Positions 3,744 through 55,503 of a stretch of DNA of 64,000 bases are shown piece after piece; the first letter of the stretch is position 1, and every line of letters begins with the position of its first letter. The DNA comes from Eledone cirrhosa (lineage: Eukaryota). The DNA is taken from the NCBI GenBank assembly GCA_964016885.1, contig OZ024741.1, forward strand, positions 298,468,001-298,532,000, given 5' to 3'. Under the pieces are notes generated by a model, which was given only the letters and a program-made list of their open reading frames with translations, was not told the DNA's origin and did no database searches. A program made the translations under genes and the position numbers.

Positions 3744-3784
3744 TCGAGCTGATGATCCGAATAAGGTGAAACAATTGTTCTCGG
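3744..3784 (+). ncRNA. Type I hammerhead ribozyme motif
   Basis: tcgag CTGATGA tcc-gaataa-ggt GAAAC aatt GTT ctcgg; palindromic stem III; lies 3' of the GIY-YIG remnant on the same strand. Confidence 0.8.
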
Positions 3785-4815: not shown

Positions 4816-5606
4816 CGGATTACATTGGATATACCATTATCATTGTACTACATATGTATTCTATTGAATATCTGTGATTCCTTTTAGCAACACACTGAAA
4901 CACGCATAAACACGTACATTCATATAGAGCTTAATCAATGATTTAAAAGTCTACAATTTCGAGCTCAAATCTTCTTTTGTTTAACAATTGTCAGTAACTG
5001 ATGTTGCTTCACGACTATATAATGTGTACATTAGTTTTATTGATGTATTCAGTTTAATTTCTCCCGCATATATATATACCAATGGGTGGAACTGGTGATT
5101 CCGGTTAGTAAACGATGCAATAAATAAAAGCACTCGACGTTATTCGAGTCATCCATCGTAGATGTAGTATCCTTTGGATGGTGCAGGAACGGAGTTAAAT
5201 ATTCACCCCCCCCCCACACACATATATATTCATATATCCATGGGTTATTGACGGTAGTGAGAATGCGTACTCAGTCCTGAAGTAGAGTTTAAATATTCAT
5301 TTATTAGGGCTATGTGGTGAGCCTGGTTATTCTGGAGTTTCACCTGCACACTCACTTGATTATTAGACAAGACAATTAGTCTCGTCTGATGATCCTATGA
5401 ACGAGTATCAATGCCACTCTCTGAACAACAGTGACAGGTATCCAAAAAGAACTGTTCAGTATTATTGACTGGCATCGAGTCCCTGGTTTTACATCAGTTT
5501 TCCTTCTCCTAGGGCTAGTGGCCTCTCTTCTCCAAGGGATAGGGGTATCTCACTCTCGGTGGGCAAACCACTCGTTTGAACACCAAACCCTGTATTCCCA
5601 TATCTC

Positions 5607-15999: not shown

Positions 16000-16044
<45 letters not shown>

Positions 16045-16047
<3 letters not shown>

Positions 16048-16158
16048 TTGAAAAAAATGAAAACGAAATTTCATTTCTCACTCTTAGTATGGCACTTACT
16101 TAAATGTACGTATGCATGTATACGTACATACATATATGTATACAGACGTACAGTAGCA

Positions 16159-16194
<36 letters not shown>

Positions 16195-16622
16195 TGCTAC
16201 TGTACGTCTGTATACATATATGTATGTACGTATACATACATACTTACATTTAAGTAAGTGCCATACTAAGAGTAAGAAATGAAATTTCGTTTTCATTTTT
16301 TTCAACTTATCGTTTTCGGTATGCCTGACCGATTTAACTCACTCATTATGGAAATTAGGCTGCTCAGCCGTTAATTTTCATAAGGAAAGTATATACTTTC
16401 GAACGTCCAACTATCTGGCAGATGGGTAAACGGTGCTGATGATAGCTAACAAGCTTGAAACTAGTACATCGTTCCTGTGTCAGTGTTGAACAAAAAGGTG
16501 ACGTGGTTGCCTTAACACCGTATGGCATAAATTCAGGCTGTTCAGTTTGTTTACAAACGAACAAAGCGGCGTTGTAATAAGCGACCGCTAAACTGATGCG
16601 TGCATATATGTATGTGTACCTG

Positions 16623-16678
<56 letters not shown>

Positions 16679-16724
16679 CTACTGTACGTCTGTATACATA
16701 TATGTATGTACGTATACATACATA

Positions 16725-16730
<6 letters not shown>
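16045..16730 (+). mobile_element. Retrozyme-like HHR repeat, family B (~485 bp unit)
   Basis: Terminal direct repeat 16195-16248 = 16677-16729; TA-centred inverted arm 16045-16308; other copies at 26879-27560, 40009-40310 and fragments at 57250-57545. Confidence 0.65.
16429..16473 (+). ncRNA. Type I hammerhead motif (family B)
   Basis: aacggtg CTGATGA tagc-taacaa-gctt GAAAC ta GTA catcgtt; duplicate at 27261-27305; stem-II-deleted copy at 40074-40104. Confidence 0.85.
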
Positions 16731-16793
<63 letters not shown>

Positions 16794-16824
16794 ATATATA
16801 TATATATTATATATATATATTTAT

Positions 16825-16873
<49 letters not shown>

Positions 16874-17657
16874 TAGTAATAATAATAAAATTGAAGACTA
16901 AAATCCAAAGAGGGCTCGATAAGGAAAATATATATCAAATATATAAGAACCGTAGAGCAAATATTTATTAAAATAACAGATTTAAGCAAAGAATCGCTGC
17001 TTTCACCCTTAACGGGATCTTCTGAAACTAACAAAGTCAATCTGTAAACGCAGAACTGGATATTTCAAAAAACGTTGCAACCGGAGGAAGACAGGAAGAC
17101 GATACTTTGGTTCGTGGTAACGTTCGCTGGCAAAGAACGGGAAAAAACGAATAATACGTCATTAATAGGAGCGGTGAAAAACAATTACGCGCAAAGACAA
17201 AACTACGTTTATGGTATAAAAGAGGTCGTAGACTAATGTTCTCTTAGGTGGTGCATAGAGACGTTCTCTGGCAATGAACGAAAAAACGAAGATAATAAGT
17301 CATATGTGGAGCGTGGAGAACAAAAGCACGCAAAGACAAAACCACGTAAATGGTATAGCAGAAGTCGTAGACTAAAATTCTAACTAGGAGACCAAATGAA
17401 TCTCCGCTACAGAGTTAAGAACAAAGTAAATAAATACAATACAGAAGTAATAGAAATAAATAAATACATACACGCAAACAGATACGTACGTACACAAGCA
17501 TACGCAAAACCTTACCATAGGTATACAAAACCACGCACATATAAATATGTGTGTGTGTGTATGCTTGTGTACAAATAAATAAATAATTATATAAACGTAT
17601 ATAAGTAAATAAATACGTATATAACAAGCGCACACACATACCTACATATAAATACAC

Positions 17658-18443
17658 AACGACCATTCCACTTATTACAATGATGCTCTTGCTCGAAGTG
17701 GATTTGTCGATAAGGTAGCATATACAGAGTATGAAAATAGACCTAGAAGAAATAGATCCCGTCGCATTTGTTGGTTTAACCCACCATATAATATGGAGGT
17801 GGCCACACCATTAGCTAAGATCTTTCTTTCCCTTATTACGAAGCATTTTCCCCCTACACATAAAGATAGTAAAATTTTTAATAGAAATACTATTAAAATT
17901 TCTTACTCTACTACTCCTAACCTTGCACATAACATCACAGCTTCAAATTTAGCTAAACTACCTAGCCGTAGGAACACGTGCAACCCTGTAGTTAGTACTG
18001 ACTGTAATTGTAGGAATCGGGCTGATTGCCCCCTATCCGGGAAATGCCTCTCTAGTAACATTGTCTACAAATGTAAGGTTGTAACACCCACGTCCCGTAG
18101 GGCCTACATAGGGTTAACCGCCAATAGTTTCAAGCAGCGTCTTTACATGCATACCCATTCTTTTCGTTACCATCTAAGAAGGAATATGACGTCACTTTCA
18201 GCTTATATCTGGAGTCTAAAAGACAACCACACCCAATATAAGTTACACTGGGAGATCCTAGCTAGGGCTAGATCGTATAACGGAAATAAAAGACCATGTG
18301 ACCTCTGCGCCGCTGAGGCCCTGGAAATACTCTACGCCACAGACCACATCTTAAACAAAAAATCTGAGGCAATTTCGGCTTGTAAACATAAATTGCACAA
18401 AAATTTCCTGTATTACAGCCCCACGTTATACCCTAACAGATAG
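17658..18443 (+). CDS. PLE linker + CxC/CxxxxC Zn finger + GIY-YIG endonuclease (RT missing)
   Basis: Frame open from NDHSTYYNDALARSG through WFNPPY, CNCRNRADCPLSGKCL, VYKC..YIG, CDLC..E and CKH; first ATG at 17793. Confidence 0.85.
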   Translation, partial: NDHSTYYNDALARSGFVDKVAYTEYENRPRRNRSRRICWFNPPYNMEVATPLAKIFLSLITKHFPPTHKDSKIFNRNTIKISYSTTPNLAHNITASNLAKLPSRRNTCNPVVSTDCNCRNRADCPLSGKCLSSNIVYKCKVVTPTSRRAYIGLTANSFKQRLYMHTHSFRYHLRRNMTSLSAYIWSLKDNHTQYKLHWEILARARSYNGNKRPCDLCAAEALEILYATDHILNKKSEAISACKHKLHKNFLYYSPTLYPNR

Positions 18444-19354
18444 CACGATCTATACGTGGATATTTTACGTCTTGATGTGGGAGCTAAGTATATGTTTGGT
18501 TTATTCCTTTACTTATTTGCATAGGTAAGTATATATTACCCATTTGTTTTGTGAAGGTATGTATACCTTCTCGTACGTATATTTGACTGTTATGGCGTAT
18601 CATTTTTACATATTCTGGTATTTAGGGTTTCGCTATGTGTATACGGGAGTTTTGCGTCCGAGTGAGTATGCAGGTTCGTACGTATGGTGAGTGTGTGTAT
18701 ATGTGTACTTCTTGTTTTAGTTGACTTACGTCTCCGAACATTCGTGTATTTATATGTAGGTATGTGTGTGCGCTTGTTATATACGTATTTATTTACTTAT
18801 ATACGTTTATATAATTATTTATTTATTTGTACACAAGCAACACTCACACACATATTTATATGTGCGTGGTTTTGTATACCTATGGTAAGGTTTTGCGTAT
18901 GCTTGTGTACGTACGTATCTGTTTGCGTGTATGTATTTATTTATTTCTATTACTTCTGTATTGTATTTATTTACTTTGTTCTTAACTCTGTAGCGGAGAT
19001 TCATTTGGTCTCCTAGTTAGATTTTTAGTCTACGACTTCTGCTATACCATTTACGTGGTTTTGTCTTTGCGTGCTTTTGTTCTCCACGCTCCACATATGA
19101 CTTATTATCTTTGTTTTTTCGTTCATTGCCAGAGAACGTCTCTATGCACCACCTAAGAGAACATTAGTCTACGACCTCTTTTATACCATAAACGTAGTTT
19201 TGTCTTTGCGCGTAATTGTTTTTCACCGCTCCTATTAATGACGTATTATTCGTTTTTTCCCGTTCTTTGCCAGCGAACGTTACCACGAACCAAAGTATCG
19301 TCTTCCTGTCTTCCTCCGGTTGCAACGTTTTTTGAAATATCCAGTTCTGCGTTT

Positions 19355-19430
19355 ACAGATTGACTTTGTTAGTTTCAGAAGATCCCGTTAAGGGTGAAAG
19401 CAGCGATTCTTTGCTTAAACTTTAATCTGT
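19355..19430 (+). ncRNA. Hammerhead motif with CAGAAGA (U4A) core near the PLE 3' end
   Basis: acagattga..agttt CAGAAGA tccc-gttaa-gggt GAAA gca-gcgattctt-tgc TT aaact-ttaatctgt; inverted copy at ~16976-17045; duplicate at 30187-30262. Confidence 0.75.
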
Positions 19431-19460
19431 TATTTTAATAAATATAATATATATCTATAT

Positions 19461-19568
<108 letters not shown>

Positions 19569-19606
19569 ATATAATATATATATATATAATATATATATAT
19601 ATAATA

Positions 19607-19653
<47 letters not shown>

Positions 19654-19864
19654 TATATATATATAATATATAGTAATAATAATAATATATAATATATAGT
19701 AATAATAATAATAGAATATATATATATATAATATTTATATAATATGATATAATATATATATATAATATAATATATATATATATATTATATATATATATAT
19801 AATATATATATATATAATATTTATATAATATGATATAATATATATATATAATATAATATATATA

Positions 19865-19906
<42 letters not shown>

Positions 19907-20613
19907 TATATATATTTATATATAATATAATATATACATATAATATATATATATATATAATATATATTTATATATATAATATAATATATATATATATTAT
20001 ATATATATATATAATACATATATATATGCTATATATATCTATATATAATATAATATATACATATAATATATATATATATATATAATATATATTTATATAT
20101 ATAATATATATATATAATATATATATATAATATATATATAGTAATAATAATAGATTTGAAGACTAAAATCCAAAGAGGGCTCGATAAGGATAATATACAT
20201 CAAATATATAAGAACCTTAGAGCAAATTAATCTGTTATTTTAATTAATATATATATATATATAATATATATATATTATATATATATATATAATATATATA
20301 TAATATATATATATTATATATATATATATAATATATATATAATATATATCTATATATATAATATATCTATATATATAATATATATATAATATATATATGA
20401 ATATAATATATATTATATATATATATTATATGTATATATTATATATATATATACATATATAATATATATATATATATCTAATATATATATATAAATATAT
20501 ATATATATTACATATATATATATATATATAATATATATATATATTATATATATATAATATATATATAATATATATCCATATATATAATATATCTATATAT
20601 ATAATATATATAT

Positions 20614-20646
<33 letters not shown>

Positions 20647-20685
20647 TACATATATATATATTTTATATATATATATTTATATATA

Positions 20686-20718
<33 letters not shown>

Positions 20719-20850
20719 ATATGTATATATATATAAATATATATATATATATTATATATATATATATATATATTTTATATACATGTATATTTTATATATA
20801 TATATATATTATTATATATATATATATATTTTATATATATATATTATATA

Positions 20851-20936
<86 letters not shown>

Positions 20937-20941
<5 letters not shown>

Positions 20942-21600
20942 CAAATAACGAAACGAAATTAAATTTCGTTTCGTTTGTAACTTACTTTTGTATGACTGAC
21001 GCTTAAACAATTAAGTTAAAAATGTACATCCATATACGTATACTGAAATACTAGTATGCATATGAATACACACACGTATACATATGTAGATGTACCAAGT
21101 CTTTCACTGGTTACTTTACTGTGGGTATCCAGCTATTCTGTATGTAAACACACAGACAAACCGGTTTTTAGAGTCATACTGGTTTTTGAGGAAACACCTT
21201 TCCTCTATTCTCCAGAAAGCCAGACAAGGAATATTGAACTAGTTTCGTTGTTGTTACAACTCATCAGCAATATTTACCTATCTACCGGCCTTTCTGGAGA
21301 ATCGTAAAAGCACATATTGTTATATGCTTTTTCTATGAAAATTAGTAGTGGGCAGACTAATTTGCATAGAGTGTGAGTACGTACCGGTTCAACGGAGACG
21401 ATAAAAACAAATAACGAAACGAAATTAAATTTCGTTTCGTTTGTAACTCACTTTTGTATGACTGACGCTTAAACAATTAAGTTAAAAATGTACATCCATA
21501 TATGTATACTGAAATACTAGTATGCATATGAATACACACACGTATACATATGTAGATGTACCAAGTCTTTCACTGTTTACTTTACTGTGAGTATCCAGTA
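20937..21600 (-). mobile_element. Retrozyme-like HHR repeat, family A (1.4 units of ~467 bp)
   Basis: 20937-21130 is repeated at 21403-21598; HHR at 21230-21274; duplicate at 31749-32412. Confidence 0.8.
21230..21274 (-). ncRNA. Type I hammerhead motif (family A)
   Basis: Identical to 40933-40977; duplicate at 32042-32086. Confidence 0.9.
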
Positions 21601-21624
21601 TCCAATATATATATATATATTTTA

Positions 21625-21725
<101 letters not shown>

Positions 21726-21775
21726 TATATATATATAGATAAAATATATATATATATATATATACATATATATAA

Positions 21776-21823
<48 letters not shown>

Positions 21824-21874
21824 TATATTATATATATATATTATATTATATATAAAAATATATATTATATATAT

Positions 21875-21920
<46 letters not shown>

Positions 21921-21996
21921 AAAATATATATTATATATATTATATTATATATATATATATTATATATATATATTATATATATATATAATATATATA

Positions 21997-22036
<40 letters not shown>

Positions 22037-22082
22037 TATAATATATATATATAATATATATTATATTCATATATATATTATA

Positions 22083-22146
<64 letters not shown>

Positions 22147-22149
22147 ATA

Positions 22150-22187
<38 letters not shown>

Positions 22188-22194
22188 ATCTATC

Positions 22195-22251
<57 letters not shown>

Positions 22252-22252
22252 T

Positions 22253-22385
<133 letters not shown>

Positions 22386-22625
22386 GATAAATCTACCAAA
22401 AGTTTACGGTAGTGTCCAATCCGTATGAAGAACTCAATGTAATCCGGATATCATGGAAAGAAGAGATGCATTCAAAAATCACTTTCGGTGAAAGATAAAC
22501 GGAATACAGAGTCAAGATAAAATATTAAAAAAATAATGAATAAAACAAAGAAACAGTTCCTTATATTAAACAAAAAAAGTTCATTATTTAACGATCGTTT
22601 TCTAGGACATATATGTGTTAGAATT

Positions 22626-22825
22626 NNNNNNNNNNNNNNNNNNNNNNNNNNNNNNNNNNNNNNNNNNNNNNNNNNNNNNNNNNNNNNNNNNNNNNNNNNN
22701 NNNNNNNNNNNNNNNNNNNNNNNNNNNNNNNNNNNNNNNNNNNNNNNNNNNNNNNNNNNNNNNNNNNNNNNNNNNNNNNNNNNNNNNNNNNNNNNNNNNN
22801 NNNNNNNNNNNNNNNNNNNNNNNNN
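22626..22825. other. Assembly gap (200 N)
   Basis: Run of N. Confidence 1.
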
Positions 22826-33411
<10,586 letters not shown>

Positions 33412-34517: not shown

Positions 34518-34700
34518 AAAAAGAAGAAAGAGGCCCACAAGATCAGTAATTTGGGCAGAATCGCTTGAACCCATAGTAATATCAAATAGATTACTATATG
34601 TGTTTCTGGTCCAGTATTCATTCTGAAATTCAATAAGTGTTAGTCTAGCATGTGTAATAATATTAATGTCATCCAAAGTTAAGTTAGATCTATTTTTAGC
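34517..34700 (-). pseudogene. Inverted fragment of PLE reverse transcriptase
   Basis: [52 protein letters not shown] matches AKDNSDLTNDEIKIILEARKTIVKFENSYW..FDITMGSNDSAEITDIVGLFIA. Confidence 0.9.
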
Positions 34701-35808
34701 AGATGATAAAAATGCGACCTTCTATAACGAAGCTCTAGATAGAAGTGGCCACAAAAATAGATTGGAATATATACCTTCTACTAGTAACACTATAAACATA
34801 CAACCTAATATTACCAACAAACACCAAATGAAAAGTACACACCTAAATGCCACTCACACTATACCCCAAAATACCAACATAAAACCAAATTTCTCTAACT
34901 CCTCTAATATAAAGTATAGTAACTCTCAAAAAACTACTCATCATACAACTCTAATAAATGTTAATAATAAAACTCCTAATAAACAAGCTAAAACACCTAA
35001 ATCAATAAATCTAACTAAAAATGTGCGTGGTGAGGTCATTAACATTAATCCTCCTAGTAAACATCACGATGCATCCTATAAAAACAATAAACAACATAGA
35101 AACCGTAATAGACGAGTTACTTGGTATAATGCTCCATTTAATTTACAAATTAAGGATAATATAGCTAAACAAATTTTTAATATCCTAGAGAAAAACTTCC
35201 CGCCAAACCACAAATACCATCAAATCTTAAATAGATCAACAGTTAAATTCTCATACCCAACAACCAAAAATATAAAACAAAATATAAGTGCCTATAATGC
35301 ATATAAATGTAAAAAAACCATAAGTATACCACCAATACATCAAACTAACCATAATATCTCCTCAAATACAGAATTAACGAAAGGTTGTAACTGTAGAAAC
35401 AAAGCAAACTGCCCATTAAAAGGAAATTGTCTTGTTAACAACATAGTTTATAAATGTAAAGTTAAAACTAAAGATTCTATTTGCTCATATATAGGAGCTA
35501 CTTCTAACAATTTTAAGGTAAGGTTTAATACCCACAAACATAGTTTTAAAAATGCCGCACTGGCTAATACATCTCTAGCAGAAAAAATTAATAGTTATAG
35601 AAATAAGAATATAGAATATGATATGACCTGGAGTGTGCTCAAAAGAGCCACCCCTTATCAAAATAATAGAAATGAATGTAGATTGTGTTCCCAAGAACTA
35701 TTTGAAATAATGAAATCTAAGGATATCCTATTAATTAAGCGACAGGAATTAATTATATCGTGTAATCATAAACTGAGAAAAACATTTAAATATTATAAAC
35801 CTAATTAA
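34666..35808 (+). CDS. PLE linker + Zn finger + GIY-YIG endonuclease (RT missing; ATG supplied by the inverted fragment)
   Basis: [47 protein letters not shown]. Confidence 0.85.
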
Positions 35809-40009: not shown

Positions 40010-40318
40010 GCCGTTAATATGCATAAGGAAAGTATATACTTTCAGACGTTCAATCATCTGGCAGGAAGGTATACGATGCTGATAAGCTTGAAACTAGTAC
40101 ATCGATCCTTTGTCAGTGTTGAACAAAAGGGCAACGATGGTTGCTAAACAATGTAAGGCTTAATTCGGGCTGTTTGTTTACAAACAAACCGAGCATTATA
40201 ATAAATGTTCGGTAAACCCATACGTACATACATATATATGTGCATGTATATATATATATATACATACTACTGTACGTCTGTATACATATATGTATGTACG
40301 TATACATACTTATATATA

Positions 40319-40462
<144 letters not shown>

Positions 40463-40932
40463 CAGTTCAATATTCAATATATATATATATATAAAAACTA
40501 GTTCAATATTCCTTGTCTGGCTTTCTGGAGAATAGAGGGAAGGTGTTCCCCCGAAAACCAGTATGACTCTAAAAACCGGTTTGTCTGTGTGTTTACATAC
40601 AGAATAGCTGGGCTGCTCACAGTAAAGCAACCAGTGAAAGACTTGTTACACCTACATATGTATACGTGTGTGTATTCATATACACACTAGTATTTCAGTA
40701 TGCATATGTAGATGTACATTTTTAACTTAATTGTTTAAGCGTCAGTCATACAAAAGTGAGTTACAAACGAAACGAAATTTAATTTCGTTTCGTTATTTGT
40801 TTTTATCGTCTCCGCTGAACCGGTGCTTACTCACACTCTATGCAAATTAGTCTGCCCACTACTAATTTTCATAGAAAAAGCATATAACGATATGTGCTTT
40901 TACAATTCTCCAGAAGGGCCGGTAGATAGGTA

Positions 40933-40977
40933 AATATTGCTGATGAGTTGTAACAACAACGAAACTAGTTCAATATT
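40933..40977 (+). ncRNA. Type I hammerhead motif (family A)
   Basis: aatattg CTGATGA gttg-taacaa-caac GAAAC ta GTT caatatt; stems I and II perfect, stem III is the palindrome ACTAGT. Confidence 0.92.
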
Positions 40978-41399
40978 CCTTGTCTGGCTTTCTGGAGAAT
41001 AGAGGGAAGGTGTTCCCCCGAAAACCAGTATGACTCTAAAAACCGCTTTGTCTGTGTGTTTACATACAGAATAGCTGGGCTGCTCACAGTAAAGCAACCA
41101 GTGAAAGACTTGTTACACCTACATATGTATACGTGTGTGTATTCATATACACACTAGTATTTCAGTATGCATATGTAGATGTACATTTTTAACTTAATTG
41201 TTTAAGCGTCAGTCATACAAAAGTGAGTTACAAACGAAACGAAATTTAATTTCGTTTCGTTATTTGATTTTATCGTCTCCGCTGAACCGGTGCGTACTCA
41301 CACTCTATGCAAATTAGTCTGCCCACTACTAATTTTCATAGAAAAAGCATATAACGATATGTGCTTTTACAATTCTCCAGAAGGGCCGGTAGATAGGTA

Positions 41400-41444
41400 A
41401 ATATTGCTGATGAGTTGTAACAACAACGAAACTAGTTCAATATT
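41400..41444 (+). ncRNA. Type I hammerhead motif (family A, next unit)
   Basis: Identical motif 467 bp downstream. Confidence 0.92.
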
Positions 41445-41662
41445 CCTTGTCTGGCTTTCTGGAGAATAGAGGGAAGGTGTTCCCCCGAAAACCAGTATGA
41501 CTCTAAAAACCGGTTTGTCTGTGTGTTTACATACAGAATAGCTGGGCTGCTCACAGTAAAGCAACCAGTGAAAGACTTGTTACACCTACATATGTATACG
41601 TGTGTGTATTCATATACACACTAGTATTTCAGTATGCATATGTAGATGTACATTTTTTCAAC

Positions 41663-41720
<58 letters not shown>

Positions 41721-45510: not shown

Positions 45511-46028
45511 TTATTCAAAGTAATCCAACTTATTTTACAAACGGGATAAAAAAAACCAAAACCGTACGCAATCCCGCAGACCTTCCTTTATTATAGTTTA
45601 TATATATATATATTGTTATACATTTGGAGGTTCATGCTGCCAATAAAAACGCACGCACCTGTTGGTTTCCTACAGGATGGTGTAGAACAGAACAAAGGAG
45701 AGACACACATTAACAAATTAATCATTGAGGGGTGGGCGCGGGAGATCACAGAATGAATGTGTGACGAAAGATCTTTGACAATAAATGAATAAACAACCAT
45801 CTAGTTATTAAACTAAGCAACTGGAAGTTTATAGTAAATTGAAGTGAAAGGTATTATGTGCATGTGTTTTTACTGGCAACGTGACCCTCCCAAAGTATTA
45901 CATTATCTGTTCCAGCACTTGTTTTCAGATAAGAAACCTTCCAAAACAATATAAAATATAAAAACGATATATATATATATATATATTGATAGAAAGATTT
46001 GAATGGATACAGTTTAGTTGAAAGGAAT

Positions 46029-46149
46029 TTATTGACACGTGTTTCTATAACAGTTACATAACCTGAAAACAGCTGCTATCTACAAACTTTTAGTTATGCA
46101 GACATTCAATATTTCAATGTTATTATTTACTGTCATTTCATCAGAATAA
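46029..46149 (-). ncRNA. Hammerhead motif with ~92 nt stem II
   Basis: ttatt CTGATGA aatgacagt...actgttata GAAAC acgt GTC aataa; canonical core, palindromic stem III, GUC triplet. Confidence 0.8.
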
Positions 46150-46711
46150 TATTACTGAGGACCTATTTAGTTTTTATAGAGAATATTAGGAGGGAGGGGT
46201 GAAGTTGTTAGAAGAATAGTTGAAGGAGTGGTTTTTCGATAGAAGTGAGAATTCTTGGTGGCAGTGAGTAATTAGATTCCCATCTGTTGTTTTGACATTT
46301 TTTATAGAATATATTATTAGTTATTTTTCTAAATCTATAGAAGGATTAGAGATAGTAAAGATATGCGTGGTTGGTTTTGTGTTTGCACTTAATTAACATT
46401 CAGACTTAAATTTTTCTTTCAAGTGTACGTATCCTTTCACCCACGCATTCACACACAAATATATTTGCACACCTCTACAAAATACATATACTCACAATTC
46501 ACATATTCATACTTACATACATATACACATGCATACACATATATATACACACATGTATTCATGTACATACATACGCGCTCATGTGTATACATTTTCATAC
46601 TCAACTTATCTTTATATACACACGTATAGACACACACATATATACATACATACTCTAGTCCATGTGTACACACATACACATACATACACATCTATATACA
46701 CATATATATAT

Positions 46712-46750
<39 letters not shown>

Positions 46751-47017
46751 CACTTTAATACATGAATACACTTACATCTAACTATACACATCAAACATAT
46801 ATATATATTTACTTATTTATATACATTTTCACATATATATACATACTTATGGACGTTTTTAGACACATTCATTATCGCATATTTGCACCTATTCTCATCA
46901 GCATATCTTTCCATTATTAGTGTGGTAATTTAAGGTTATTAATATATGTTGAGAAGAGATTGTTTTTATATTTTTCTAACTAGATTAAGGTTTATATAGT
47001 TGGGGGATGTCCCTCTT

Positions 47018-49339
47018 TTATGTAATATTCGGCTTGTAGTGGGAAAAAAGGGTTTTAGTTCTGTGACGGCAGAATAATGTTCGTTCAATTCTGTTATTCA
47101 GCAGTTTCTTCTTGTGTGTGATTATGTAATAAATCTCAAGATTACACAATTTGCAGAAATTTTGGCTCCTGGAAAAGCTTTGGGTTTTAGCTAATTTCTC
47201 CCATTTTAGGGTAAACTTTTGATCGCTATCCCTGAGTGTCCAAGCTTTTTCTGCTAAAGTTGTTACATTTCTTTGGCTCTGGTGTTTTATTGAGTAAGAA
47301 TGCCTATACAATCGAGATTTAAACGATGTTGCCGTTGATCCCACGTAATACCACTCGTTGCCTCCGGATTTAATGGTACACTTATAAATAATATTTTTTT
47401 CCAGCCAGTTATTGCCGAGGGGGCAGTTGTCAGGATAGGTGCAGTTACAGTTGTGAACGTTGGGTTTTCTCTGGAGTAGTATTGCGGACGAACTTAGGTG
47501 TGGTTTATTTATGTTCTGTAGTGTATTGTCTACTGTTTTTTTTGTGTTCTTTGTACTTAAGTTCTTAGTGTTTTCGTTTAACCTTCTAGTATTGATCTTT
47601 TTTATGTGTTGTTCAAGGTTTAACGCTGTAGAGTATGACAGTCTTATAGTGGTAGGGTTTAGAATTTTGTGGTATTTGTGTGATGTGGGAAAATGTCTTT
47701 TAATTATTTTAAAGAAGAGTACTGGTAAATTTGTACTAATGGAACTATTGTATTCGGGGTTATACCATAAGTACTCTTTGCATCGCTTTCTATTAGTTTT
47801 GTTTGTTGGTTTACTGGTGTGCATACTATGGTAGTAAGTGTGGTTTGGTGTTGTGTTATTATATCTACCTATGTGGGATTTATTTTGGGTGTTTTGATTG
47901 TTCCCATCTATGTACTCTATTTTGTTGAGGTAGCCTGCTTTACTAAGGGCGTTATCGTAGTACTCGGCGTGTTCCTTAAATACTTGTATGTTAGAAGATA
48001 GACCCGAGATTCTAAGGGAAATATTTTTAGGGATAGATTTAATTATAGAGATGGGGTGGTTAGACCCAACATTTACGTATTTGAGATTTTCATTCAATTT
48101 ATGAAACGGTTTAATCAAACCAGAGTTTAAATTGAGTGTGACATCCAGGAAGTTAACTACTTTAAGGTTGTATTCATATGTTATAGTTAGTCCTATTTCG
48201 AGTAGTAGTTTTCTTATATCTTTGCGTAGTTTTTCTAGTTTTTGGTTATTAAGGTTTTTAGCTAGGAGGAGAACATCGTCGCGGTATATTCCGCCATGGA
48301 GATTGCTGAATTTTTCCTGGAGTCTAAAGGCGATAAATAACCCCACAATATCAGTTATTTCCGCCGAATCGTTAGAGCCCATTGTTATGTCAAAGTTAGA
48401 GGGTATATCTTTACGTACCCAATAACTGTTCTCAAATTTGACTATAGTTTTCCTAGCTTCTAATATAATCTTAATTTCATCGTTTGTAAGGTCAGAGTTA
48501 TCCTTAGCAAACTTAATTGCTCTATTCAAAGTTTCAGGTGATATCGATGAGTAATATTCATCGATATCAAACTGGATAAACTTAGATTTATTCTTATTGC
48601 TAATGCTATTAAACAATCTTATTGCTTCTTGGGTCTTCCCCCAGAGTTTAATGTTAACCTTAGCCTTAATTTGGGGGATGATTCTATCTAAGATATATTT
48701 GCTTATTTTACCTATATCTGATTTAGAGGGGCAGATTAATCTAATTTTAGGGTCATTATCAAAGTTTACCTTGTGGTCCTTAAGATTGAAGGTGGGTACC
48801 GCCGGTAAGAGTGGTCCTGTCCTATCTTCGATTCCGAGATTTTTCACTTTTTCGCATGCCTCATCATTGATGTGCTTAAGGGTTACTTCACTCGTTTTTC
48901 GATATTTTTTATGTAATTCTTTTCGAATGAAGTTGTTGTATGTAGTGCAATCCATAGTGTACAGGTTTGATGTTTTGTCCGCTTTTACTACAATTCCTTT
49001 GGTGTTTTTAAGGTCGTCCAGTAGTTTTTTTATATCTTTCTGTAATTTGCTGTTGGTGTTGCGTCCTTTGAATTTAATTTTAAGGATTAAGTTCATAAGG
49101 TCCTGCTCAAATGCATCTAATAGTGGGTTGGTGGGTGGGTTTTTACAAGTCCTAAAACCGAATTTGTTGTTTACACCACTTTCTAATGTTGAGTTCATAC
49201 GGCTTCTATCATAGTGGAGCGTTTTCCACCTGACACGTCGAATGAATTCATTAGTTTTTTGAATCATACTCAATAAATATTCCTTTCTACCTTGGGTTGG
49301 TATGTTTTTGAGTGACATATCCAGGTAGTGTTTTTCCAT
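47018..49339 (-). CDS. PLE polyprotein: reverse transcriptase + Zn finger + GIY-YIG endonuclease (773 aa)
   Basis: SLKNIP N-terminus, KADKT, LKDHK..RLI.P, QFDI..YY.SI, FDITMGS.D, YRDD, NFLDVTL, SNHP, CNC..CPL, IYKC..YVG, CKLC..E, CRH; no internal stop. Confidence 0.95.
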   Translation of the reverse strand: MEKHYLDMSLKNIPTQGRKEYLLSMIQKTNEFIRRVRWKTLHYDRSRMNSTLESGVNNKFGFRTCKNPPTNPLLDAFEQDLMNLILKIKFKGRNTNSKLQKDIKKLLDDLKNTKGIVVKADKTSNLYTMDCTTYNNFIRKELHKKYRKTSEVTLKHINDEACEKVKNLGIEDRTGPLLPAVPTFNLKDHKVNFDNDPKIRLICPSKSDIGKISKYILDRIIPQIKAKVNIKLWGKTQEAIRLFNSISNKNKSKFIQFDIDEYYSSISPETLNRAIKFAKDNSDLTNDEIKIILEARKTIVKFENSYWVRKDIPSNFDITMGSNDSAEITDIVGLFIAFRLQEKFSNLHGGIYRDDVLLLAKNLNNQKLEKLRKDIRKLLLEIGLTITYEYNLKVVNFLDVTLNLNSGLIKPFHKLNENLKYVNVGSNHPISIIKSIPKNISLRISGLSSNIQVFKEHAEYYDNALSKAGYLNKIEYIDGNNQNTQNKSHIGRYNNTTPNHTYYHSMHTSKPTNKTNRKRCKEYLWYNPEYNSSISTNLPVLFFKIIKRHFPTSHKYHKILNPTTIRLSYSTALNLEQHIKKINTRRLNENTKNLSTKNTKKTVDNTLQNINKPHLSSSAILLQRKPNVHNCNCTYPDNCPLGNNWLEKNIIYKCTIKSGGNEWYYVGSTATSFKSRLYRHSYSIKHQSQRNVTTLAEKAWTLRDSDQKFTLKWEKLAKTQSFSRSQNFCKLCNLEIYYIITHKKKLLNNRIERTLFCRHRTKTLFSHYKPNIT

Positions 49340-49654
49340 TGTTGTGGTTGCGTTTGCTGTGTGGGTTGCTCGACTTTACAGGAGGTAAATATACAGTATT
49401 TTCCGTTGTGTTGTAATATAAATATTACACACAGTAGATTATCAGCTCACGTAGAGTTTGCTCGTCGAGCAAACTCTACGTGAGCTGATAATCTACTGTG
49501 TGTAATATTTATATTACAACACAACGGAAAATACTGTATATATATATTGATATATATTTTTAAGTATATATATATATATATATATATTGATATATATTTT
49601 TAAGTATGTATATATATATATATATTTATATATATGAATATATATATATATTTA

Positions 49655-53758: not shown

Positions 53759-54244
53759 TCACTCTCCATTCTTAACCCATCTAAAGAAGGATATTTTTAA
53801 GCGATGTGTACAACTTATCGCTGTTTCAGCTCTGCTGTTGATGAGCTCGTGGGGTGCAGTTATGATGTGGTAGAGCTCCATGAGGCAAAGATCGCATTTC
53901 CTCTTGAAGTTGTACGGTGCAGTCCTGTCGACAATCTCCCAGTGTGTGGAGAAGCTAATGTTTAAGTCCTTTAGTGATGTGATGTAGTCCGCGAGCGAGG
54001 TGGAGTGCCTTAGTTTTCTATTTGTGAAAGAGTGGAGATGTGTTCGAAACCTAATTTTGAACGGGCCGGAGGTGGCCCCTATATAATGTTTAACGCTATT
54101 GTGGCTAGTAATAGTGCATCTATATATAACCCTATCGGTCAAGCAGTATCCTCTAAGGGGGCACCGTCCTCTGTCGCGGCAGTTGCAATTTCTGTCGCTG
54201 TTCCGTCTATTTCCCACGATAAGGCTATCATTGTTGCTGGACAA
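53759..54244 (-). pseudogene. Naiad-type Zn finger + GIY-YIG remnant
   Basis: CNCRDRGRCPLRGYCL, IYRC..YIG, CDLCLME, CTH; open for 161 aa. Confidence 0.88.
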
Positions 54245-55503
54245 ATTTATTCAGTTGCTGCAGACATAGATTGAACTCAACTTTTAAATATAAATATAAA
54301 TTTAAAATGTAGTATATTTACTTATGATTTGTAATTATCTATGAAACTCGCCGATAAATCTTTCGATTTCTTTTTTTTAAACATTCTTCATGAATAATTA
54401 AACTACCCTAAAAGCTGATGCTCCAAATATATCGAATAAATTTTACACTAGATAAACTTCTATAATAAATATAAGACCATCTGTAGATCAAATGGGTATC
54501 CTAAACTTTTGGAATGATTTCTGCTAGACAGGATTTGGTAAATAATTTTGGTTTTGTTTGCTTTTGATTCTGATGCTTATAATGAACTTGGCAATATATT
54601 GTCAATTAATTTTGAAGGGTTGATTTCTGTGGTTGATTTGCGGGGCATACTGTGTTTTATTTTTAATATTTTTTAATTTTTTAATATTTTTATTGATATA
54701 TTGATATCTGTTGTCTATTTATGCTTGAACGATAATCATGTAGAGTAAAGACAAGAATAGTATTGTTAAAATTAATGTAGATTCTATATATATTTGTGTG
54801 TATGTACACATATATGTATACTAGAATTTTTATAGCACAATGAGAATGTTTTCATGTGAAATAGGAATTTGCAGAGTTGATCACGTAAATTCACATGGAA
54901 GTCTATAGTATCGAATCTGGGATAACCTTCTATTTTCTTTTTCTTTTTTCATGAAAGTGCATATATACTTATGTATTTCAATTTTTTTTGAAGTTTTTTA
55001 TCTCAGTTTTTTTATCTGTTTTTTTATCTCGGTTTTTTAACTCAGTTCTGATTATAAACCTAGGAATTTTAAACTAGACATATGATCATTATTTTTCACA
55101 CATTATTGATACGTGTCTCATTCATGAATACTGATATTTACATTATAATACCTAATTCATACGAATTGATATTTTTAGATTGATGAAACATAATGTTTTA
55201 AATCTGCCTCGTTTATATATATTATACTCTTGATTTGGCCAGAGATGAATATTTCCAGATACCTTTTAAGTGTAACTTTCCGTATTTATTATTTCCATGA
55301 AATATTGATTGTTATTCTGGTATCATATCTCTGTTTTTAGCCTAAGAAAATACCTATATGCGTGTATAAATAATACATGCATATATTTATTTTTTAAAAA
55401 TCTAATTGAGTTCTTCACACGCAAGGTTAAAATTATTGAAAAAATTAATTGACCCGCGTGCATATTATTTTCTTTTCTTATGTTTTGCGATGACCTCCCC
55501 TTT

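Follow-up and report, generated by a model that had tools for sequence, protein, structure and literature searches.

The 467-bp array and related copies in the window

The window, i.e. the whole stretch of 64,000 nucleotides analysed here, contains a tandem array at 40495–41668. Tandem Repeats Finder, run on the window, assigns it a period of 467 bp with 2.5 copies and 99% matches. The units differ at three sites and have a GC content of 37% (below 50%). The longest ATG-initiated open reading frame on either strand of the unit is 20 residues long and the unit is thus non-coding. Unit positions are denoted u1 to u467, with u1 at 40495, 40962 and 41429. The array and its parts are:

40495–41668, plus strand: single-arm retrozyme insertion of 2.5 units, ending at the short 3' end (u238), followed by (TA)n
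40442–40511, plus strand: 5' edge, a 35-bp tandem duplication within (TA)n
40922–40993, plus strand: first complete type I hammerhead, with core at 40940–40946, stem II at 40947–40960, GAAA at 40961–40964 and predicted cut after 40970
41389–41460, plus strand: second complete type I hammerhead, with core at 41407–41413 and predicted cut after 41437
40971–41437, plus strand: predicted cut-to-cut monomer of 467 nt, self-paired
41296–41353, plus strand: hairpin region u335–392, directly 3' of the long end

Stem I of the hammerhead is formed by u439–445 and u10–16. The core CUGAUGA (u446–452; starting at 40940 and 41407) is followed by stem II (u453–466) and then by GAAA. Stem III is a 2-bp palindrome with a UA loop. 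Cleavage is predicted after u9, which places the two cuts 467 nt apart. Rfam Hammerhead_HH9 aligns with both complete hammerheads (E-value 3.9e-8, 38.6 bits) without reaching the gathering score of 52; at the gathering threshold, Rfam gives no match in the window. A preliminary description of this DNA proposed near-identical, non-coding 467-bp units with one hammerhead each. The units are as described, but only two of the hammerheads are complete, since the first unit contains only the 3' half.

The 467-nt monomer folds far better than shuffled sequences (z = −8.8 in linear form and, against 40 shuffles, z = −7.4 in circular form). Opening of the catalytic core in the predicted circle costs 1.5 kcal/mol, i.e. 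the ribozyme is predicted to be accessible. The hairpin u335–392 is a candidate protein-binding site. The 5' edge of the array lies no more than 9 nt before a cut site (40503). The 35-bp duplication at this edge may mark where a very short inverted arm was joined.

Further copies of this family and a sister hammerhead family, referred to as family B, are present in the window:

20935–21591, minus strand: second insertion of 1.4 units (u122–u467, then u1–u312), with a long 3' end bordering (TA)n
31747–32412, minus strand: identical twin of the second insertion, inside a duplicated segment; possible assembly duplicate
16045–16730, plus strand: two-arm insertion of family B in (TA)n, with core at 16436

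The second locus is 94–96% identical to the array units, and both loci are flanked by (TA)n, as initially reported. The 1.4 units on the minus strand were also recognized correctly, although the locus has an identical twin. At least 6.6 kb are duplicated at 98.7% identity (16001–22600 and 26834–33387) across an N gap at 22626–22825, which is possibly an assembly duplicate. As the twin sits in this segment, it and the second locus are counted once.

Family B has a GUA triplet and a U-U at the base of stem II and is also found at two other loci (L060 and L098). In the window it has a twin copy at 27268 and a core-deleted copy near 40080 (40040–40310). The part most clearly common to both families is the hairpin u335–392 (76% identity over 59 nt). 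Additional CUGAUGA motifs with a downstream GAAA are present at 3749 and 9850 and are possibly minimal hammerheads of other PLE ends. At 1778 (minus strand) only the CUGAUGA core is found. A third family of hammerhead-like motifs occurs near the ends of other Hydra-type ORFs (L184:990–1075; L047).

Genome-wide copies and their ends

The genome searched comprises 3.0 Gb in 1,796 contigs. Exact matches to the 38-nt ribozyme core number 4,948, whereas the reversed control has none. Exact long ends in (TA)n were found 2,193 times, which corresponds to at least 2,193 insertions on many contigs. Exact short ends in (TA)n number 1,248, and the long end is read through 7,297 times. A looser hammerhead pattern is found at 5,330 sites; the first 100 of these 5,330 listed all belong to the 467-bp family. 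Sampled copies are ~81% to 100% identical to the window unit and subfamilies differ by 5–19%. The arrays reach up to ~30 units per arm. The sampled insertions consist of unit sequence only, and no layout of LTR, PBS and PPT was seen in them. Four sequencing runs of unrecorded kind contain the family with a depth that is not readable as expression; in one of them (TA)n follows position 40806 (the long end). These data support a young, dispersed, multi-copy family of non-coding tandem repeats with type I hammerheads, in agreement with the youth proposed initially. Some retrozyme insertions adjoin or nest in one another, and an older subfamily (87%) abuts a young one near a 29-nt palindrome of the unit (L041:510–1733; L060).

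Ends were read in 63 insertions, 37 of them taken from the top-scoring matches and 26 from the first core matches along one contig (C1). Thirteen of the loci L001–L030 were dropped because they repeated an insertion, and L206 was dropped as a duplicate of L205. Such a survey of copy termini had been proposed in the preliminary description. The 111 arms of these insertions comprise 54 with a short 3' end (u233–245), 52 with a long 3' end (u308–313) and five with other ends. Hence, 106 of the 111 arms terminate at ~u243 or ~u312. Of the 43 insertions with two arms, 40 combine a long end with a short one on arms inverted to each other; 18 insertions have a single arm. According to reading by hand, 102 of the 111 arm ends run into a TA-rich flank. 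The smallest insertion (L184:305–366, ~60 bp) consists of the two end stubs only. At first sight this locus suggested fusion of a unit tail to a complete PLE; this was rejected, since (TA)n lies between the ORF and the ~60-bp tail-only insertion.

The two window loci end at u238 (array) and u312 (second locus), i.e. at the two fixed 3' ends of the family. Their different start and end points had been interpreted as a circular permutation, which does not hold in the sense of freely permuted ends. The stretch between both ends is:

41199–41273, plus strand: PLE-type 'tail' of ~69 nt, between u238–244 and u311–312, with a 29-nt palindrome at 41233–41261

The 5' ends, on the other hand, are scattered. 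None of the 111 lies at u8–12 and their distribution is uniform by a KS test (p = 0.51). In the set of 111 plus 63 hand-read ends (long-end-anchored sample), one of 174 lies at u9–11, with 1.1 expected. The position of the array's 5' edge about 9 nt before the cut was thus described correctly for this copy, but it is not a feature of the family. A post hoc excess is found at u1–36 (23 ends compared to 13.4 expected, p = 0.008), which is the site of the helix closing the monomer.

For PLE insertions, a 5'-truncated arm in inverted orientation has been described, together with a tail at one of the ends (PMC8557442). The PLE of the anole nicks and extends both target strands; its reverse transcription begins at two internal positions of the RNA, by which the tail is defined, and depends on RNA located 3' of these positions (PMC11167929). 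By analogy to these elements, twin fixed 3' ends on inverted arms together with variable 5' truncation are the two-start signature of a PLE, and the two tail ends may represent start sites of reverse transcription. The fixed 3' ends do not refute a circular template because a PLE reverse transcriptase initiates internally on its RNA (PMC11167929). Since the insertions carry this signature, the questions of enzyme class and priming mode of the retrozyme are answered at the level of the element class; at this level the PLE link is supported by insertion anatomy, read by comparison with the known elements. The earlier assignment as a metazoan non-LTR retrozyme inserted into (TA)n by a PLE agrees with the combination of hammerhead tandem repeats and two-start ends.

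The candidate mobiliser and known systems

Several PLEs are present in the window, one of which has an open frame:

47018–49375, minus strand: Hydra-type PLE ORF, open frame of 785 residues with RWK, DKT, CxCX5C and a C-terminal endonuclease; candidate mobiliser class

The ORF is part of a full-length Hydra-type PLE (45985–49540, minus strand). The 3' region of this element spans ~1 kb. A minimal hammerhead-like motif lies at 46144, the short end is located near 45988, and a tail stub in inverted orientation is found near 49460–49540. The four features of the ORF constitute the Hydra diagnosis (PMC8557442). Its Atlas look-alikes have GIY-YIG/RVT families; Pfam gives no match in the PLE ORFs of the window. 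Naiads are described with an N-terminal endonuclease and a DKA motif and without canonical hammerheads, and cephalopods as holding only remnants of them (PMC8557442). The proposal of a Naiad reverse transcriptase as mobiliser is therefore unsupported, as the full ORF of the window has DKT and a C-terminal endonuclease, the class being assigned by motifs.

Dozens of 121 scored copies of the window Hydra family have the full 785-residue frame, which suggests current activity, judged from the sequences. Intact candidate enzymes are present in the same genome as the 467-bp family. Ten loci of this Hydra family were fetched. All seven simple two-arm loci combine a long end with a short one in (TA)n; the remaining three read through into tandem copies. 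Three further Hydra-like families with CxCX5C are located at 17652–18443, 34627–35808 and 53759–54250. Two of them also have long and short ends in (TA)n, with tails of ~90 and ~160 nt. Tail lengths of the window Hydra families are thus ~110, ~90 and ~160 nt, compared to ~69 nt in the 467-bp unit. One of the further families has a hammerhead-like motif in which U3/A8 apparently replace C3/G8. Another one contains 139-bp repeats in its 3' region resembling tandem minimal hammerheads. No parent PLE was found among the four window families and 30 GIY-YIG loci from other types of PLE, which yield only short or low-complexity matches to the unit; many more PLE families exist in this genome. Hydra is the likely mobiliser class with regard to activity, target and geometry; other PLEs targeting (TA)n are also candidates.

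Hydra-clade PLEs share with the 467-bp family the (TA)n target, hammerheads, the inverted 5'-truncated arm, the tail and partial tandems, and non-autonomous Chlamys elements form multicopy head-to-tail insertions (PMC8557442). The 467-bp family differs from the Hydra clade as described there in having no ORF, a tail of ~69 nt instead of the 30–40 nt quoted, a canonical hammerhead including stem III and up to ~30 units per arm (PMC8557442). The Poseidon PLE of the green anole is similar in its two adjacent internal starts, the nicking and extension of both strands, the AT-rich target and the need for RNA 3' of the starts (PMC11167929). It is an autonomous element studied in vitro with linear RNA, whereas the 467-bp family is non-autonomous and known from genome sequence (PMC11167929).

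Metazoan non-LTR retrozymes were defined by Cervera & de la Pena 2020, with circles in coral, mussel and axolotl, and PLE-driven copying of these circles was proposed (PMC7229834). As described, they resemble the 467-bp family in their tandem non-coding units with one type I hammerhead each, a GC content below 50%, a monomer that is strongly self-paired and leaves the ribozyme accessible, copy numbers in the thousands and PLEs in the same genome. The unit of 467 bp exceeds the 150–450 bp quoted for them and is inside the range of 51–972 bp (10.64898/2026.07.22.740005). Circles were demonstrated for the metazoan retrozymes, whereas the family reported here is known from genomic sequence alone. 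On the other hand, it combines fixed twin ends, inverted arms and a (TA)n target, three features that do not appear in the accounts of metazoan retrozymes as available. The available text on animal retrozymes gives no motif that would name the mobiliser (PMC7761336), and the main text of the Octopus repeat annotation does not mention ribozymes (PMC13282606).

Vertebrate retrozymes are linked to PLE pseudo-LTRs, and cleavage was reported in one of nine dimers (Li, Clavereau & Pollet 2026, 10.64898/2026.07.22.740005). They are likewise non-autonomous and tied to PLEs, and the array contains the two consecutive complete hammerhead units used there to define a retrozyme (10.64898/2026.07.22.740005). 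For vertebrate retrozymes the PLE link consists of kinship to pseudo-LTRs and co-occurrence, whereas here it is given by insertion anatomy; local amplification is proposed for the former, whereas in the 467-bp family the arms flanking the junction on either side contain several units (10.64898/2026.07.22.740005). In the mostly open-access literature no description of the 467-bp family or of a twin-end retrozyme anatomy was found (Repbase and Dfam lie outside this scope). The class is already known, and the family itself is therefore no surprise; of interest is its insertion anatomy, which ties a retrozyme to the two-site priming of PLEs.

Template and proposed mechanism

The 467-bp hammerhead family is probably a non-LTR retrozyme that is inserted by a Penelope-type reverse transcriptase (probably of the Hydra clade) and copied, at least in part, from a predicted 467-nt circle. 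An insertion with at least two hammerheads would be transcribed. Self-cleavage, probably as a dimeric hammerhead because stem III has only 2 bp, would release the monomer, which would be closed by a host ligase; incomplete cleavage would also leave multimers. The PLE protein may then bind near the tail hairpins and nick both strands of the (TA)n target. Each nick would prime cDNA synthesis at one of the internal sites (u243 or u312), and the enzyme would pass the cut site and complete a varying number of laps. The two cDNAs would be joined head to head. Local duplication may later enlarge some of the arrays. It is conceivable, as a tentative extension, that the insertions document rolling-circle, target-primed reverse transcription directly in the genome. 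In this case, a dimer of a Hydra-clade PLE protein would nick the two strands of (TA)n and start two reverse transcriptases at two internal positions of a single 467-nt circle made by the ribozyme, with up to a dozen laps each. If so, the life cycle long proposed for retrozymes could be rebuilt in vitro from natural parts such as the 785-residue Hydra copies.

A third question, beside enzyme class and priming mode, is whether tandem units arise by rolling around a circle or by local amplification. Young two-arm insertions make it testable by haplotype. Two loci are each composed of identical monomers over both arms, 18 in L062 and nine in L032. In six of 51 two-arm insertions, both arms are fixed for a private allele over at least two laps. 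Variants specific for individual laps are present in register on both arms in five of 51 (L034, L038, L040, L210 and the ambiguous L033), so that both patterns are about equally frequent. Three indel-prone stretches of the unit were left out of both tests. Fixed arrays of one haplotype favour a circular monomer as template, and lap-specific variants in register point to multimeric templates or to conversion between the arms. Common variants recur periodically in L229 (period 6), L034 (period 4), L033 (period 2) and L074_75 (period 3, one arm only), which shows local duplication or copying of multimers. For this reason, array length does not equal the number of laps. The three alleles of L062 are private among 47 loci, though not among 94. 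One haplotype is common to L031 and L032, and array homogeneity can therefore simply reflect youth. The best reading is a mixture of monomer circles and multimers, in which the circle is likely.

The RNA fold appears to be under selection. Variants found in at least three loci retain a base pair in 13 of 26 cases, compared to 15 of 85 private variants (p = 0.002). Stem II shows a compensatory change among subfamilies, and the triplet varies between GUU, GUC and GUA. Among 14 related monomers, five compensatory pairs were counted, a value reached in seven of 500 shuffles with relatedness not controlled. Conservation is also seen in the helix by which the two ends of the monomer are brought together, and no variant common to several loci falls in the hammerhead core.

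A rather unlikely alternative is a non-autonomous PLE derivative that is copied from uncleaved linear multimers with the same two starts and no circle. The hammerhead would then trim 5' ends or be slow, and tandem length would result from the source array and local duplication. The lap-specific variants in register (four to five of 51 two-arm insertions) and the periodic duplications fit this explanation, and autonomous Hydra copies likewise read through into tandem copies. Unprocessed RNA is the main substrate of the anole PLE, and hammerhead cleavage is dispensable for its insertion in vitro (PMC11167929). Eight of nine Xenopus retrozyme dimers remained uncleaved in vitro, with local amplification being proposed (10.64898/2026.07.22.740005); the weak 2-bp stem III could slow cleavage here as well. 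However, 5' truncation would shorten the arrays in each generation, yet both arms often comprise many laps of one haplotype. There are 207 singleton variants compared to 11 in-register calls. Furthermore, 4,948 copies retain an unaltered core, no multi-locus variant falls into the core, and the end-closing helix of the monomer is conserved.

A second alternative is that the genome contains an ORF-bearing PLE whose pseudo-LTR is the 467-bp unit; the arrays would then be its truncated ends. Fixed 3' ends, a tail and inverted arms are indeed the look of truncated PLE copies (PMC8557442), Xenopus retrozymes resemble PLE pseudo-LTRs (10.64898/2026.07.22.740005), and the inspected insertions are ~100 of more than 2,200. 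The preliminary description had named this combination, with fixed 3' ends and no monomer RNA, as what would refute its reading. The 3' ends are fixed, yet no unit fused to an ORF was found in 63 plus 40 loci (~100 insertions). PLE ORFs near ten of these loci represent separate insertions: they are either encoded on the other strand or kept apart from the unit by intervening sequence such as (TA)n. Beyond the long end the unit's own start follows again (7,297 read-throughs compared to 2,193 termini), and the 467-mer is repeated up to ~30 times per arm. This alternative is improbable, while the 467-bp unit is likely descended from a PLE pseudo-LTR.

Least probable is a cleaved linear monomer as template, on which the reverse transcriptase would jump from the 5' end to the 3' end and thereby produce tandems: such a monomer includes the two start sites as well as the hairpin downstream, and the mild excess of 5' ends at u1–36 fits it, but 5' ends do not pile up at the cut (one of 174) and arrays show no mixed subfamily haplotypes in spite of the divergence between subfamilies (5–19%). 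A cleaved linear monomer would also cap the long arms at 303 nt. In the long-end-anchored sample, read by hand, 29 of the 39 long arms extend beyond the cut site. Among 158 full units, 156 have an unaltered 12-mer around the cut. This read-through and the exact junction exclude the cleaved linear monomer as the usual template.
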